Source of the DNA: Chlamydiota bacterium
GTDB lineage: Bacteria > Chlamydiota > Chlamydiia > Chlamydiales > RGXB01
Direction of reading: 5' to 3'
Length of the DNA: 64,000 bases
NCBI GenBank assembly: GCA_947494155.1
Contig: CANLTW010000004.1
Span: 1-64,000, forward strand
Positions within the stretch are counted from its first letter, which is position 1, and each line of letters begins with the position of its first letter. Position numbers: made by a program. Shown piece after piece: positions 1-6,000 of the stretch.

Positions 1-3000
1 CGTTCGGTTTTTTTTTAAGTTTATCCCAATCAGGGAGTTAAAATTAATATATAAATTTATTTTTAAATACGCTATAATAGCAATAGATTTGAGCACTATA
101 GACTTAGGGGAAAGTGCGGTCTTTATTTAGGGGGGAATATGATTCAAGCTTTTAAACCTGTTTTAGCCACATCACCAATGAAAACGCTACCTCAAGTTAG
201 CAGGTCAGTTATGGGTGCGCGACAGATAACTTACGCACCGCAAAACTCAAAATTGAATAAAATGGTAACAGTAGCAAAAGAGGGAATGAAGGCTTTCACC
301 TCCACTCGAGCAGAACTTCTCCCCCTTATTCAAGCGTCGCGCGCAGGCGAGGTTCTCTATATGCATCCAAAGGTTCAAGCTCTTATCGATCAAAAATTGG
401 GGCAAGACGACAGGCTTTCTTTAAAATTTTTAATGGAAAATTTTGTGGCCGGCCTCCATGGCTCCAATGGCTATGAAACCATCAAAAATCAGCTTAGAGA
501 AGGAAAGCTTGAGCTTAAAAAGGACTTTTTCTGGACAAAAGATGTAACTGAGTGCACGACCTATGCGCAAGGGGAAGACCCCATTATCGTTGTTGTAGAG
601 TTACCTGGAGAAAAAGAGAACCACTACAACAAAGTTTGCTCGCTCCATGCTAAGCAATACATTGCTGAGGGGTTCAACGCAAATATTTTGGGGATATTCA
701 AGAAAAGCGATAAGATTATTTCAAAAGAGTGGGCTACAACCCAGGCTTTGATCCATGCATCAAAGGTCATTTTACGAGCACTAAGGTAACCGGATAAAAA
801 AGCTTATGAGAATCCCGAATTTAAACGCTTTTTGTAATTTTGCAAAAAACATCTTCGACAAAGAGGTCCGTTCTAGCAGTTATTTGGTCGCAAAAAATCA
901 TTTTAACAAACTGCAAAGCGGGTTTACATTCGGCAAAAACCTGTACATCAGTCCAGAAAATACGCATCTTAAAGAATACACTATTTACGAAGTCCAAAAA
1001 ATCACCGGAGCGCTCTTTCATGGAGCAAGGGATGCGCAAACGGTGATCCATTTGGCGGAAAAAAATGGCGCATTTCCGCCGGGAAAAGGGCTTCATGTCG
1101 TGGATGCGACCGATGTGAGTTCTGCACGGATGATTGCAGGACCTCAAGGGGTGATGGTATTAGTGGAAAATACACAGGGCGTCGCTTCGGATGCGTATGG
1201 AAATATGCAAATTCCTCTCCATTTGCCGAAAAAAATTCTGGGTATTTGGGAAAAAGATTCAGATAGAGTATCGATAGATTGGGCTCTATTCTCCTCGGTT
1301 CGTCGCTACATATCTGAGATTAGCTCAAGACATCCCTAGATCACAGGTCCGTTTCAGGTCGCATCCCAACACAAACCCCTTTTCATGAGGGGGGAAATTT
1401 GGCCCAATCGGTAGAGTGTTGGAAAAAAATCTGCGGTAGACTTCGATGGCCTCCTGATGGTTTTCGACCACATAAAAACAGTTAGAGATCCATTCGGATC
1501 CTTTGATAGTTCCCGACTGCAAATTGATAGTAAACCGATTAGAGATTTTCATTTCCCAATAGTGGGAAGATCCAAATAAAATCACCGGATATGGGGGCAC
1601 CGAGTTCACCTTGCGCCTTACCTCTTCGAGGCTGTATTCGAAATCGGTTCCAATCCCCCCCTCTAAAAAAATGGGGAAGTCTAGATAAAACTCGGCCTGT
1701 CTTTCCACGAGTTTATCAATTCGGTAGGTCATCTTTGCATCAATAAATGTGTTTATCGATTGTTCATTGACATACCCCCCCGTTTTTAGGCTGAAATCGA
1801 CAATATTCGCGCAAGAGAGGATTCCAACAGATTTAGCCGCTCTATTTCCCACCTCCATCACTCCGGGTCCACCGCCGGTGACCAAAGCGATCGAAGTAGA
1901 AGGATTCAGAAGGGGGTGAGAGGATGAGGCACGCATTTCTAGAATCCCTTTAAGCAAAAGCGTCAGCTCTTGTTCAAAGTTGGAACCTTTAAGATTGGAT
2001 CCATACACACCAAAAAAAGTGGCCTTTAAGAATTCCTGAATGCGATCTTTTGGGACAAACATACCAGTATATCTTCCTGGGCGTTCTATGAATTGCAGAC
2101 ATTTTTTTGTCACCAGATCCACCCAGTGAATTTCTATCCCTAGCCGATAAAGATCGATCATAAAGGTCCGATCTTCGTGAGTGAAAAACTGGTCTGATGA
2201 GCGTGAAGCGTATTGAAAATAGAGCCTTTTGACCTGCTTTTTAATCTTATCCGATAAAAAAAGGCGTTTGAGAAAATAGGTGGGAAAATGGCGACAAAAT
2301 AAAACCCCTTCAGATGTGAACTCCTCCCAATCGATCCTATTCAAAAAATAGGTTTCTGGCTGGTTGAGGATATAATTTTGGATCATGATGGAATCGCTTG
2401 GAGACATCTCGACAGTTGGTATGGATTCTATGAAATAGTCTTTGACGATCCATTCCTTGGGTTGCAATTTTTGCATTTGTTTAGAGCTGACAATGAATGT
2501 AGCTGCTTTATTCCCTTTTTGCCCCGGCGCATTTTTGAAGGTCTCAAAAATATTTTGGTCATTAGCGAGGAGGGCCTGCAGTTTATCCCTATCGGAAAAA
2601 AACACAAACTCTTTATAGGGTTCCAAAACATAAAATTCGAGCGGTATTTGCTCTATGGGTTGTGTGCTTTTCCCAAAAAACTCATAAATATCTCCTGAAT
2701 TGCGTGTTGTGGGTTCCAAAATAGAGGCTTCGGTATGGATATACCCTGGGGGGAGAAGCTCGTTTTTTACTCTTGCAAAAACTGTTCTTATGTAAAGAGG
2801 TTCAGTTTTGACTAAAAGCATCTCATTTTCTTGAACAATTTTGGGTTGGGAGGGATCCCTTTTTTGATGCAGCTGCAAAAGATGTCTTAAAGAGATTTTT
2901 TTTTCTAAAGCGATTGCAACGGTAGGAAGCAGACCTTTTATACTCTCTTCATAGACAACTTTTCCCTCAAGTAAAGGGATAAATCCGATCAATTGTCCTT

Positions 3001-6000
3001 GAAGCACTTGCAGATCAAACCTCTCTTTAAAAGAGAGGAGCGGATGACCGTGTCGATCGCTTCTTTCGAACATGCGTACTAGATAGTCGGGTTTTAGAAC
3101 AAGCCGATCGGGATCTTTTGCGAAGAGCTTACCAACATAAGCCCCCTTATTGAGTTTAGAAAGAAGCTCTAAACCCAATGGGCAACGAGGAATAAATTCC
3201 ACGTGAGCGCGTATTTTTTTTAGGCCAAAATCGATCTCGGTATGTTCTAAAATCGCATCCAGCCCCAATTGGGCAAGGATGCTTTTAAGATTGAATTGGA
3301 TCAGTTTAGTATCGATTTTAAAACCAAGAAATTGGGCTGAGACATGCTCAAAAAGAACAACTGCTTTAGAGTTATTTTTCGATTCAATATATCCATCGGG
3401 GGTAATCAAATCAAACATCGTCGTAGATCTCCTTAAATAGACGAAATCCTCTTAAGTAGATTCGCCCTTTAGTTCCTAGCTGTAATTTCTCTTTAAAAAA
3501 GTGCTTGTAAACCTCTACGGCTTCAGATCCTGAAGAGACTTGTATAAGACAGTTGGAGAGATACTCGCCCGTTCGTAGAGTGCCCGATTCATGGTTTAGA
3601 GTAAACCTCGATGTGATTTTTTGCTCCCAGTAATAGACATCTCCAAAAAGGAGGATTGGGGTGACCTCATAGCTTCCCACCTGCCTCCCTACTACTTCAA
3701 GGGCTAATTCCAAGTCGGTACCATACCCCCCAATAAAAAAAATAGGGAGCTTCACAAGAAATTCGGCTTGACGTTCGATCATCCGTTCAATTCTATAGGT
3801 CATTTTACCGTCAACATGGGGATTCATCGGTTCGAAAGAAAAATTGCAGAGATGGGCCAAGGATAAAATCTTTAGATCAAAGGCCACCTTGTTGGCTATC
3901 CCCATGACCCCTGGACCCCCTCCCGTAGAGACTGCCAAAGGGCGGTGTGGGTTCAAAAGCGGGTGGGAGCAGTCGATCTTCATCGTCTCCAACCCTAGCA
4001 AAATCTCCCTAATATCCCCCTCGATATCTTTAGAAACGCAGCTTGAGCCGTAGATCCCAATAGTTAGAGCGCGGTGGTACTCTTCGATTCGGTTCGGAGG
4101 CAAAAAAATTCCGGTGTAGTCAAGTACCCTTTCACAAAATTGCAGCAATTTTGACAGAGTCTTATCGTACCAAAATACCTCTATTCCGTGGGCGTTGAGA
4201 TCTAGCAAAAAAGAGCGGTCAGCATGAGAAAAATAGCCCGGTGTTTTTTTAGAAGGGTTCATGAAGTAGATCCGTTTAAGCTTTTTGAGGATCGTTCTTT
4301 GAAAAAATAGACCCCGAAGAAAAAACGAGGGGAGGTAGGTAACAAAAAGAACCCCTTCAGAATTGATCTGCTGATTTAAAATAGATTCCAAAATAGCCGT
4401 CTCGGGCTGGTCATGGATAAATTGTTCTAAAAGTTGATGGTGCCGCTCATTGCGAATAACAGGGGGCAACTCAACCTTGGACGAGGGGACAGTTAGCCAA
4501 AATGAGGTAAGGGGCTCTTTGAGCTGCCGATTAGAGGTTAAGAAAAGTGCGGAGCGGTTCTCCTCATTAGGAGTTAAGGAGAATACCTCTTGCACTACTT
4601 CCAAAGATTCTAAAGCTCTGTTTAAGCCGCGCTCAGAGAAGAAGCTGATTTTTTGCTTGTACTCTGACTCCTTGTAAAGGGCGAATTTTACCGAATTATT
4701 ATGATAAAGGAGCGGAACATAAGAGCTTTGTGGTTGTAGACAAAAATCGGAAACAAGAAAAAGGGTTTCGTGTTTAATTGCTTTATATTTGACTACCGTT
4801 CCAGCAGGGTCCGGAATCAAAATTTTTTCTATTTGGGTCTCTGAAAAATCGGTCAAGGGGGTATTGATGGGGGGGATACGGTAGGCATCTAGTGTAGAGT
4901 TCAGCTCAAGAATTAATCCATCGTCTTGTTGCACCAAAGAGTTGCTATTAAAATCGACCAACCTTTCCTTTTGAAGCTCCTCAATAAATCTTTTCGATTG
5001 GACTCTAAATCTATCATCTTTTATAAAAAGCCTTGCAACCTTTCTTCCGACTCCAAGAGGGAATGTCGATTTGATCTCGAGAATGATCTCGTTTTTATGC
5101 ACATTTTTTTCTAGACTTAAAAGTTGAAAGCAAGCCCCCAAGAGGCGACAGTTGATATTAGGGTCTAGTAAGAAATTTTCTATGGGGTTGTGAAAACCTA
5201 GAAACGTTTTGGGTAGTTCTTTAAAAAGGACACGATAGACCTCTTTTTCGGTGCCAATCACCTCACCCAAAGGGGAAAGAAAGTGGGGGATGAAATCGTG
5301 GTGTTTCATAACCCCTTCCCTTAGCATATTTCCTATTAATCAGAAAACCTCTTCTTTTGGGGGTAAAAGCCTCACTCGAAGGATAGATATGGGACCCGTC
5401 TCTTGATTTTTCATCGATTTATCTCTAAACTAAAGGGGTATGCGTATTTTAGTAGTCAAATTGACCTCAATCGGCGATATCATCCAAACCTACCGAGCCT
5501 TTAATCAGATCCGGCAAAGCTATCCTGAAGCGAAAATCTCTTGGGCAGTGGAGGAGAGGTACAAAACTTGCGTTTCACACCTCAAAGGGTTGGATGAGGT
5601 GATTTTTCTCCCTTTCAAGGAGATCAAAAAAGGGGTTTGGAGCCCTATCGTAAAAGCGCTTAAAGCGCTGCGCAATCGCACATTTGACATTGTTTTTGAC
5701 TTTCAAGGAAATTGTAAATCTGCAGTTGTTTTAGCTCTTGTAAAGGGGGATCTTAAAGTAGGCTTTGACCGAAAAGGGGTGGCCGAGTGGCCAAATCTTT
5801 TCGCTACAAACCGTAAAGTTTTTGCCCCAAAAGAGCTCCATTCGGAGGAGAGATACCTCAGGATTGTTGATAGCGTCACAAAAAGCAAAAGAGTCCCATT
5901 TCATCCGATAAAATTTTACCTCTCTAGGGAGGAAAGACAAGAGGTGGACGCCTTTTTGGAAAAGATACCTAAAAACCTCCTCCTTTTATGTCCTTTCAGT

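Follow-up and report, generated by a model that had tools for sequence, protein, structure and literature searches.

A pan-chlamydial LOG-tailed protein of the CT387 family with two further nucleotide-enzyme-like domains, and its lineage-restricted tandem copy

The gene g00502 of the Chlamydiota bacterium GCA_947494155.1 (RGXB01) is not peculiar to this genome but orthologous to CT387, a "signature" protein of pan-chlamydial distribution, and its neighbour g00503 is a lineage-restricted tandem duplicate of it, partly decayed; the C-terminal domain of both proteins is of LOG-type fold. The reading favoured here, with moderate confidence, is that g00502 acts as a cytoplasmic nucleoside monophosphate N-glycosidase whose head and middle domains bind nucleotide and either feed or gate the LOG site, g00503 being its lineage-specific duplicate.

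The window analysed comprises 64,000 nucleotides (positions 1 to 64,000 of contig CANLTW010000004.1), and its relevant features are collected in Table 1. The first-pass annotation had described two adjacent paralogues ending in a LOG domain, and this is borne out, both open reading frames being found on the minus strand, each with its C-terminal LOG domain, and g00503 overlapping the start of g00502 by 8 nt (ATGTTTGA). The two proteins share 40% identity across 412 C-terminal residues (BLASTP, E 3e-102), and the shorter form of g00503 corresponds to the start found in most relatives.

Table 1. Positions of the gene pair, its predicted domains, its conserved neighbours and the small LOG gene
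Feature	Position (nt)	Strand	Basis
g00502, 697 aa	1325..3418	-	ORF; orthologue of pan-chlamydial CT387 family (head + middle + LOG)
LOG domain of g00502, type-II-like, aa 466-670	1409..2023	-	GGGPGVM 515-521, catalytic R573, GGIGTDFE 587-594 (E594); Foldseek
Middle domain of g00502, aa 282-440, predicted cytidine-deaminase-like fold	2099..2575	-	VIA
Head of g00502, aa 1-269, predicted dCTP-deaminase/dUTPase fold	2612..3418	-	VIA and Foldseek vs 2r9q
g00503, 638 aa (632 aa from ATG at 5309)	3411..5327	-	ORF; lineage-restricted tandem paralogue
LOG domain of g00503, aa about 420-616	3480..4070	-	GGGPGVM 469-475, R519, GGYGTDLE 533-540; PDB phmmer
Middle domain of g00503, aa about 238-394, cytidine-deaminase-like	4146..4616	-	Placed by BLASTP and hhalign alignment to g00502
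Shortened, degenerate head of g00503, aa 17-228	4644..5279	-	hhalign homology to g00502 head; motifs lost
MYG1/UPF0160 gene	7224..8120	+	Pfam MYG1_exonuc E 3.5e-52; conserved divergent neighbour, CT386 position
HIT-family nucleotide hydrolase gene, 3' of MYG1	8124..8459	+	Pfam HIT E 1.2e-27
Third, ordinary-size LOG (g00812)	C8:33637-34305 (= L001 1399..2067)	-	Outside the window; PF03641 38.9-40 bits

Residues 466-670 of g00502 match 5zi9 (Foldseek E 1.4e-9), as well as 9us2, 1wek, 5wq3 and PpnN structures, and a PDB phmmer search with g00503 retrieves 9us2 (E 1.8e-6), 5zi9 (6e-6) and 5wq3 (2.3e-4). The PF03641 scores of g00503 and g00502 (19.6 and 16.3 bits) stay, unlike those of type-II LOGs, below the 27-bit Pfam cut-off, and a weak match to the SLOG family LDcluster4 is also seen (E 0.095). 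The previously recorded PF03641 match (E 0.0011) was reproduced at residues 475-569 of the 638-aa form of g00503, which are residues 469-563 of the 632-aa form, as were the nine relatives sharing 63-99% identity, for two of which PF03641 is recorded, and the invariance of GGGPGVM and GG.G...E in ten sequences. R573, E594 and GGIGTDFE of g00502 correspond to Arg155, Glu178 and 170-PGGFGTLDE-178 of CgLOGII, conserved across all LOG subgroups according to the available text of PMC5379747. Among 47 homologues (24 chlamydial and 23 non-chlamydial), the catalytic Glu is kept in 24/24 and 23/23, and the catalytic Arg in 23/24 and 23/23, respectively; G587, G588 and G590 occur in all 47, and T591 in 23 of the chlamydial and 22 of the other sequences. 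Because the LOG-type fold keeps catalytic Arg, Glu and phosphate loop, nucleotide N-glycosidase activity is plausible, and the earlier reading is supported to this extent, though not as to the site of action.

Similar folds are displayed by the type-II LOGs (CgLOGII/Cg1261, 5wq3; TtLOGII, 1wek; Streptomyces coelicolor, 5zi9) and by Neisseria meningitidis YgdH (9us2), with Foldseek E-values of 1.4e-9 to 5.8e-8 and TM (target) of 0.60-0.74. Relative to the features given for type II in the available text of PMC5379747, GGGxGxM, the catalytic Arg and GGxGTxxE with its catalytic Glu are common to g00502, whereas PGGxGTxxE lacks its initial Pro, Asp ahead of the catalytic Glu is replaced by Phe or Leu, and the Arg-Glu spacing is 21 instead of 23. 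The approximately 465 additional N-terminal residues of g00502, forming two further domains, also set it apart from type-II LOGs.

Of 300 genomes sampled from the phylum, 277 gave a match to the CT387-type gene, including all 24 genomes of a genus with genomes of 1.0-1.3 Mb (g4), 23 of them with a single match and one (G080) with two. Size and synteny suggest that the genera g4 and g26 are Chlamydia or Chlamydophila. Chlamydiaceae-like genomes contain one open frame of 686-724 aa, which diverges from MYG1-HIT and is 42-47% identical (tblastn, 41-46%); CT387 of Chlamydia trachomatis itself (AAC67984, 'hypothetical', 691 aa) shares family and gene order with g00502, and the second, tandem copy of the RGXB01 genome is absent from such genomes. 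The Chlamydiales signature status of CT387 is already on record, with a Protochlamydia orthologue of 740 aa (PMC1403754), and ct386 and ct387 have been described as divergent (PMC6686042). In all 11 distant loci inspected (L012-L022), MYG1 adjoins and diverges from the CT387-type orthologue, the HIT gene following it in seven and not being found in the 1.5-kb flank of the other four. MYG1 and HIT are families of nucleotide-acting enzymes. Beyond the chlamydiae, the complete architecture recurs in proteins of ~650 aa (hhalign probability 100, E 2.7e-63, 619 columns), the named carriers of full-length homologues being Opitutaceae TAV1/TAV5 (7.3-Mb contig) and one Myxococcota MAG; in the three such loci examined, the neighbourhoods are variable and contain housekeeping genes.

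The roughly 450 residues ahead of the LOG domain, described by the first-pass annotation as being without any match, indeed have none in Pfam, NCBIfam or PDB sequences, but at the fold level two recognisable nucleotide-enzyme folds are predicted. The pLDDT of 64 obtained earlier was a matter of alignment depth, the AlphaFold models of g00502 built with a 24-26-sequence alignment reaching 87.4 and 86.6. In these models, residues 1-269 form a two-barrel head of dCTP-deaminase/dUTPase fold, both barrels superposing on the two-domain dCTP deaminase of Agrobacterium tumefaciens (2r9q, Pfam DCD_N + DCD; VIA Z 13.1, 226 aligned residues, rmsd 4.2; Foldseek E 7.2e-6), while single-domain dCTP deaminases/dUTPases (2qxx, 1ogh, 4xjc) superpose on its second half (residues 105-269, Z 9.3-9.9). 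Identity to dCTP deaminases is 10-13%, and since the PDB sequence search gave no significant match for head or middle domain, both assignments rest on fold; PF06559 and PF22769 match elsewhere in the genome and at neither g00502 nor g00503.

This fold, together with the motifs KS.LAQLG (45-52) and HT.AS.L.P....SGD.YE (228-246), which by eye resemble those of the genome's own Dcd (GKSTYARCGI ... NVTPFEPEWEGHVTLE), might indicate a bifunctional pathway enzyme, in which an active head of dCTP-deaminase/dUTPase type makes (d)NMP from (d)NTP and the LOG tail cleaves the product, with channelling for pool sanitation or ribose-5-phosphate salvage. Non-chlamydial homologues carry RSRLARLGI ... LDP..TRG.RIFLEF, and S46 is kept in 21/24 chlamydial and 20/23 other homologues, H228 in 20/24 and 21/23, and E246 in 17/24 and 19/23, the head residues being less constant than those of the LOG domain. 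Nonetheless, such a pathway enzyme appears improbable: the likeness between head and Dcd is statistically not significant (hhalign E 0.062 and 0.41), the two motifs lie ~175 residues apart in the head and adjacent in Dcd, the first-motif Arg (position 50; R in 16/23 non-chlamydial proteins) is Gln in 23/24 chlamydial ones, E246 is replaced in 7/24, and g00503 is conserved although its head motifs are wholly lost. A canonical Dcd (117 bits) is encoded elsewhere in the genome, where the dCTP-deaminase family model also finds a second, weaker match (47.2 bits), and the CT387-type head is therefore not the housekeeping dCTP deaminase.

The middle domain has a cytidine-deaminase-like fold in VIA (2w4l and 7fh4, Z 8.0; 4p9c, Z 7.9; FdhD, Z 7.2), chains of this superfamily accounting for 26 of the 50 rows listed; a Z of ~8 falls in the range that VIA itself labels as possibly a common arrangement. 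Neither Cys nor His is present among its invariant columns, and lacking zinc ligands it is probably no deaminase. A role as non-catalytic nucleotide sensor has been proposed for certain SLOG domains of conflict and signalling systems, and g00502 could likewise be a regulator in which the LOG (SLOG-type) domain and the other two folds, all three nucleotide-binding, merely bind nucleotides and control something else. The LDcluster4 match, the missing zinc ligands and the differences in head residues between clades would fit this role. Yet it is unlikely: 46-47 of 47 homologues retain LOG Arg, Glu and phosphate loop despite deep divergence, which is more readily reconciled with catalysis than with binding alone; in addition, the protein has no effector or output domain, PADLOC gave no match, and no defence-type neighbours were found in the three free-living loci.

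Action outside the bacterial cytoplasm or on the host, as earlier proposed, is unsupported. Both fusions lack a hydrophobic leader and any segment of transmembrane grade (KD19 maxima 1.24 and 1.28), and only the small LOG g00812 carries a leader of export type. This hydrophobic leader, reported earlier, is real and is shared by all 12 relatives aligned, while its sequence varies. Type III secretion signals sit in a disordered N-terminus, and g00502 has no such N-terminus to spare: its fold begins at residue 3-9, with the first strand at 9-15 and pLDDT of 80-87, and D3, P7, D8 and G9 are at least 90% conserved. The occurrence of CT_387 among 'potential T3SS effectors', for which the accessible parts of PMC11070183, supplement Table S3 included, give no data, together with the name 'LOG family protein' that NCBI already gives to relatives, also weakens the claimed novelty of chlamydial LOG effectors. 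CT386, the divergent neighbour's orthologue in C. trachomatis, is rated 'possibly secreted' from the GSK assay only, one of three, in the available text of PMC12671076; the secretion-validation papers retrieved for it contain 0 mentions of CT387, and literature searches found no secretion data for the latter. Thus, despite this listing, the CT386 rating, retention of the family in nearly all chlamydiae and the ~10 extra N-terminal residues of Chlamydiaceae-like orthologues, export of the fusions, for example by type III secretion, to cleave host nucleotides or make a purine/cytokinin-like signal is very unlikely, full-length homologues in non-chlamydial bacteria implying an architecture older than any effector role. 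In C. trachomatis L2, a transposon insertion was recovered in a 'LOG family protein' near artJ (available text of PMC8767425); by its position this gene would be CT387, which would then be dispensable in cell culture.

The g00503 sequences group as a single clade with SH-aLRT 100, which sits on a long stem nested within the chlamydial proteins. The head of g00503 is homologous to that of g00502 (hhalign, probability 100, E 2.4e-43, 406 columns), with S46 changed to C, residues 49-52 and H228 deleted, and E246 changed to L (g00502 numbering).

For the favoured N-glycosidase reading, a parallel is offered by Escherichia coli PpnN/YgdH (6gfl, 6gfm, 9hs1-3), a LOG-type pyrimidine/purine nucleotide 5'-monophosphate nucleosidase in which regulatory domains flank a LOG core (Foldseek E-values for this core between 1.2e-5 and 3.2e-5) and whose structure titles name ppGpp and pppGpp forms. 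PpnN is activated by the alarmone. The flanking domains differ, DUF4478 in PpnN-like clusters (Atlas row) vs the dCTP-deaminase-like head and deaminase-like middle in g00502, and a likeness in working is proposed. Accommodated in the bacterial cytoplasm, the LOG site of g00502 would split a nucleoside 5'-monophosphate into base and ribose-5-phosphate, while head and middle domains would bind nucleotide, a pyrimidine (deoxy)nucleoside triphosphate being the likeliest candidate. This ligand might act as an allosteric gate of the LOG site or, once processed, be handed to it. Retaining middle and LOG domains, g00503 may serve as a co-translated partner or as an unregulated variant.

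The C-terminal domain shared by g00502, the CT387 orthologue, and its tandem paralogue g00503 is a LOG fold carrying the LOG catalytic residues, yet a divergent one that stays a sub-threshold member by Pfam standards. The fold match was drawn from the g00502 model only (AlphaFold, 24 full-length chlamydial homologues, pLDDT 87.4, pTM 0.62), whose C-terminal ~200 residues were superposed by Foldseek on type-II LOGs and 9us2 first, and then on type-I LOGs and PpnN (5zi9, E 1.4e-9; 1wek, 9.2e-9; 5wq3, 2.5e-8; target TM 0.60-0.74 over ~197-214 columns). At the sequence level, phmmer searches of PDB sequences with g00503 retrieved Neisseria meningitidis YgdH (9us2, E 1.8e-6) and the type-II LOGs 5zi9 (6e-6) and 5wq3 (2.3e-4). 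Coordinates of the genes discussed are collected in the table.

Genes of the window around the LOG pair
Feature	Position	Strand	Product or remark
Small ORF	139-789	+	216 aa, convergent with g00502
Small ORF	806-1339	+	177 aa, convergent with g00502
g00502	1325..3418	-	ORF, 697 aa
g00503	3411..5327	-	ORF, 638 aa; 632 aa from the ATG at 5309, the start used by most relatives
GT9 and AhpC/TSA genes	5440-7065	+	heptosyltransferase-like protein; peroxiredoxin
MYG1	7224..8120	+	CT386 counterpart
HIT	8124..8459	+	
HEAT-repeat gene	8380-10137	+	585 aa

In the accessible text on CgLOGII, the stretch 170-PGGFGTLDE-178 is described as the nucleotide-phosphate motif, and Arg155 and Glu178, both conserved across all LOG subgroups, are given as catalytic (PMC5379747). 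Their equivalents are R573/E594 in g00502 and R519/E540 in g00503; in each pair the Arg aligns with that of ERK, and the Glu with that of the motif, in 9us2, 5zi9, and 5wq3. Across 47 full-length homologues aligned together (24 chlamydial, 23 more distant), R573 is retained in 23/24 and 23/23 sequences, respectively, and E594 in 24/24 and 23/23, amounting to 46 and 47 of the 47 homologues. G587, G588, and G590, as well as M521 of GGGxGxM, are invariant in both sets (24/24 and 23/23), and T591 is found in 23/24 and 22/23. The invariant GGGPGVM and GG.G...E reported in the first-pass annotation were reproduced, as were its nine relatives, which share 63-99% identity and of which two carry an annotated PF03641. 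GGxGTxxE is present, but the first Pro of PGGxGTxxE is replaced in both proteins (EGGIGTDFE in g00502, IGGYGTDLE in g00503) and variable family-wide. Type-II LOGs provide the best structural and sequence matches of g00502 and g00503, respectively, but Phe or Leu precedes the Glu here, rather than the Asp described, together with an extra N-terminal helix that builds the hexamer, for that type (PMC5379747, accessible text).

The PF03641 match previously claimed for g00503 (E 0.0011) was recovered at identical positions; it scores 19.6 bits and that of g00502 16.3 bits, both below the 27-bit gathering cut-off, and TIGR00730 scores 16.5 bits against a cut-off of 96.35. Among 15 scanned homologues, 11 reach the PF03641 cut-off (27.4-139.4 bits), namely 10 of the 12 more distant ones and one of the three chlamydial ones (P0036, 27.4 bits); two of the passing ten, the tandem double-LOG P0148 and P0086 (325 aa), lack the full-length architecture. 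Four proteins of 270-365 aa (P0086, P0115, P0118, and P0129) match g00502 only over residues ~373-665, which cover the LOG domain and part of the middle domain; they could be either naturally shorter versions or fragmentary genes.

The ~450 residues preceding the LOG domain, described earlier as unmatched, indeed find nothing in Pfam, NCBIfam, or PDB sequence searches, and a profile of the N-terminal 470 residues retrieved nothing relevant among PDB sequences (one chance match, E 0.37); their folds are nonetheless recognisable. Residues 1-470 were modelled on their own from 26 sequences of the window and of phylum genomes (pLDDT 86.6), and this model was compared by VIA-align with 48,161 chains. 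Head residues 1-269 were superposed on the Agrobacterium tumefaciens two-domain dCTP deaminase 2r9q (Z 13.1, rmsd 4.2, 226 aligned residues), and residues 105-269 on single-domain dCTP deaminase-dUTPases at Z 9.3-9.9 (2qxx and 3km3, both Z 9.9), this superfamily accounting for 16 of the 50 matches listed; Foldseek concurs (2r9q, E 7.2e-6). The modelled head thus has the beta-barrel fold of the dCTP deaminase/dUTPase superfamily.

PF22769 (DCD) and PF06559 (DCD_N) match elsewhere in the genome and not on the head, which has no Pfam match, and hhalign of head profiles against the genome's own Dcd gave non-significant E-values of 0.062 and 0.41, the first of these alignments placing RSR.ARLGI on GKSTYARCGI. 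The catalytic motifs of dCTP deaminases, also seen in the genome's own Dcd, consist of a Ser/Arg motif and a Glu. In the head, two Dcd-like motifs lie ~175 residues apart, FNLKS.LAQLG (43-52) and HT.AS.L.P....SGD.YE (228-246) in chlamydial proteins, and RSRLARLGI and H....LDP..TRG.RIFLEF in the distant homologues, resembling by eye GKSTYARCGI and NVTPFEPEWEGHVTLE of that Dcd. Of the 24 chlamydial proteins, 23 have Gln in place of the motif Arg and 17 retain E246. Elsewhere in the genome, one dCTP-deaminase family model picks out a canonical Dcd at 117 bits and a weaker second match at 47.2 bits, and the head is accordingly distinct from the housekeeping enzyme.

For the middle domain, residues 282-440, members of the cytidine-deaminase superfamily make up 26 of the 50 listed VIA-align matches, including human dCMP deaminase 2w4l and chlorovirus bi-DCD 7fh4 (Z 8.0), cyanophage dCMP deaminase 4p9c (Z 7.9), FdhD (Z 7.2), TadA, and APOBECs, with an rmsd of 4.9 over 129 aligned residues for the match of best Z; Foldseek returned 2hvv (probability 0.98, E 8.6e-3). 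A cytidine-deaminase-like fold is accordingly graded as probable and not certain, because a Z of ~8 can reflect a common arrangement. Active cytidine and deoxycytidylate deaminases are defined by a zinc site with the ligands H/C-x-E and PCxxC. Among the 26 sequences, those columns of residues 282-465 that are invariant or conserved at 90% contain no Cys or His, positions 404-405 reading P/A-S and position 413 S/T, so that the zinc site is absent.

Searches with g00502 matched 277 of 300 phylum genomes at E <= 1e-5 (one further genome being unscored), corresponding to 263/284 good-quality genomes and 150/165 genera, and a named Clavichlamydia orthologue was found. All 24 genomes of one 1.0-1.3-Mb genus (1-60 contigs, mostly one or two), which judging from genome size and gene order we take for Chlamydiaceae, the animal and human pathogens, are among them, 23 with a single match and one with two. 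CT387 (AAC67984, 691 aa) figures in the available text of PMC1403754 as a 'Chlamydiales signature protein', with a 740-aa Protochlamydia orthologue and a 263-aa Rubrobacter protein as best match outside. A MYG1/UPF0160 gene lies next to the orthologue and divergent from it in 11/11 distant-genome loci (six environmental, five Chlamydiaceae-like), in agreement with the 'ct386/387 diverging' of the accessible part of PMC6686042; a HIT gene follows MYG1 in seven of them, and none lies within the 1.5-kb flank of the other four. Some Chlamydiaceae-like genomes carry an additional small LOG elsewhere.

Beyond the phylum, an exhaustive search of representatives yielded 227 proteins at E <= 1e-3, including a set of 620-750 aa that was matched from residue 370 onward only; profile-profile comparison of this set with the chlamydial family revealed full-length homology (probability 100, E 2.7e-63, 619 columns). 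Named non-chlamydial members come from Opitutaceae bacterium TAV5/TAV1 (7.3-Mb contig) and one Myxococcota MAG, and an Atlas look-up hints at Thermodesulfobacteriota and Verrucomicrobiota, as a lead only. A tree of the middle-plus-LOG region separates the chlamydial from the other proteins (SH-aLRT 96). A metagenome scan with a 7-sequence alignment provided five full-length loci among the best 80 matches, of which the three with usable flanks were examined; flagellar genes, GNAT, and an EamA transporter surround the first, DNA ligase, ZipA, a deaminase, GuaA, and SMC the second, and a GGDEF-EAL protein and CheB/CheR the third, the neighbours thus being variable and housekeeping, with no conserved partner across these three loci.

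In the window genome (1.41 Mb, 24 contigs, 97.6% complete), the start of g00502 lies inside the final codons of g00503 (ATGTTTGA overlap, 8 nt). The two proteins share 40% identity across the C-terminal 412 residues (E 3e-102) and are barely similar upstream; hhalign nevertheless identifies the g00503 N-terminus as homologous to the g00502-type head (probability 100, E 2.4e-43, 406 columns). That head is ~45 residues shorter and has lost its motifs, with S46 changed to C, 49-52 and H228 deleted, and E246 changed to L, while the LOG motifs are intact. The g00503-type proteins were found only in close relatives, including all four genomes of the window's genus (the window's own among them) and six further loci (L002-L007); in the middle-plus-LOG tree they are monophyletic (SH-aLRT 100) and fall inside the chlamydial sequences, with 1.06 changes per column along their long stem and a sister group that this tree does not settle. 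Where five other chlamydial genomes yield a second match, it is an ordinary LOG of ~230-250 aa. In four lake-water metatranscriptome libraries, short contigs at >=95% identity cover parts of both LOG genes and of flanking genes; neither transcription nor an operon is claimed, since the libraries may contain DNA and no listed contig spans the 3411-3418 junction by at least 31 nt.

In the window genus the MYG1-HIT pair is present and separated from g00502 by g00503 and by the GT9 and AhpC/TSA genes, whose position between the LOG pair and MYG1-HIT, seen in this genus only, suggests an insertion that accompanied the duplication. Read from its first ATG, the HEAT-repeat ORF begins ~80 nt before the HIT gene ends, and its true start is therefore probably further downstream. 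On the other side of the pair, the two small ORFs are kept in same-genus relatives and diverge much faster than the LOG genes, the 216-aa product sharing 79%, 49%, and 39% identity with its counterparts at loci where g00502 shares 94%, 91%, and 88%. They are barely alike (best local alignment of 17 residues, E 0.007), and their family matches are at chance level (Tox-HDC, E 0.051; MuF_C, E 0.04; Atlas, <=0.84).

On balance we lean, if only slightly, towards g00502 being an NMP N-glycosidase of the bacterial cytoplasm, in which a nucleotide bound by the head and middle domains would gate or feed the LOG site, because the LOG active site is the most constrained part family-wide, and the head varies by clade and has decayed in g00503. 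The LOG active site would cleave an NMP in the bacterial cytoplasm, and nucleotide binding by the two upstream domains would control or supply the tail, a logic analogous to that of PpnN with different domains. A bifunctional channelling enzyme appears unlikely; the dCTP-deaminase fold of the head has to be set beside the substituted motif Arg and the wide spacing of the two head motifs. A non-catalytic sensor is rated just as improbable, given the nucleotide-enzyme folds of all three modules on one side and the near-invariant Arg and Glu of the tail on the other.

Even less credit is given to a secreted effector, the reading advanced for the fusions in the first-pass annotation. CT_387 does appear as a 'potential T3SS effector' in the text and supplementary Table S3 of PMC11070183, where no data accompany the entry; the origin of this label was traced as far as the supplement, whose wording gives no source. 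CT386, orthologue of the neighbouring gene, is scored 'possibly secreted' in the available text of PMC12671076, being positive in the GSK assay only, one of three. Neither secretion data nor a functional study turned up for CT387, CTL0643, or guessed orthologue tags in open-access papers and preprints. The CT386 score is odd for the MYG1 family, which we take to be housekeeping nucleases. No leader or transmembrane-grade segment is present in g00502 or g00503 (maximum 19-residue hydropathy 1.24 and 1.28), and g00502 opens with conserved D3, P7, D8, and G9 and a first strand at residues 9-15, its first ten residues being modelled at pLDDT 80-87. Against secretion as the family's role, the full-length architecture occurs in non-chlamydial bacteria and is older than the intracellular lifestyle, and the effector reading of the fusions is corrected on this ground. 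A transposon insertion has been recovered in a C. trachomatis L2 'LOG family protein' ~7 kb past artJ (PMC8767425, accessible text), which by its position is presumably CT387. A defence system was rejected, with no supporting neighbour and no PADLOC match; Pfam, NCBIfam, and PADLOC returned for both proteins sub-threshold LOG/SLOG matches only and no defence family.

The hydrophobic leader noted previously on the third LOG protein of the genome (C8:33637-34305, outside the window; minus strand of locus L001, 1399-2067; PF03641, 38.9-40 bits) was confirmed in 12/12 aligned relatives as an N-terminal stretch of 15-18 residues, variable in sequence, followed by a variable polar linker and the conserved core. 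With a first-15 hydropathy of 1.88, this N-terminus would fit the pattern of a Sec signal peptide. A LOG predicted to be exported has been described in Bordetella pertussis (PMC6864091, available text). The motif of the third LOG reads PGG[MI]ET..E, Glu replacing in 12/12 the Gly that makes a phosphate contact in CgLOGII (PMC5379747, accessible text), with Arg and Glu kept 23 residues apart.

CT387 is among the few large proteins retained by almost every chlamydia searched, and the searchable papers call it only 'hypothetical', 'signature protein', or 'potential T3SS effector'. Returning to the cytoplasmic N-glycosidase, a broader and distinctly speculative proposal is that the CT387 family constitutes an undescribed class of nucleotide-pool enzyme, in which a pyrimidine (d)NTP would be sensed or converted by the dCTP-deaminase-type head together with the zinc-less domain of deaminase fold, these in turn activating the LOG N-glycosidase; of free-living ancestry, it may have been kept to balance or clean nucleotides taken from the host, and been duplicated here into regulated and unregulated subunits. 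The local tandem copy, in which the head has decayed and the LOG tail is intact, offers a natural experiment on the purpose of the head. With folds for all three modules, CT387 acquires a concrete, testable enzyme hypothesis on nucleotide handling, which matters because chlamydiae live on imported host nucleotides.
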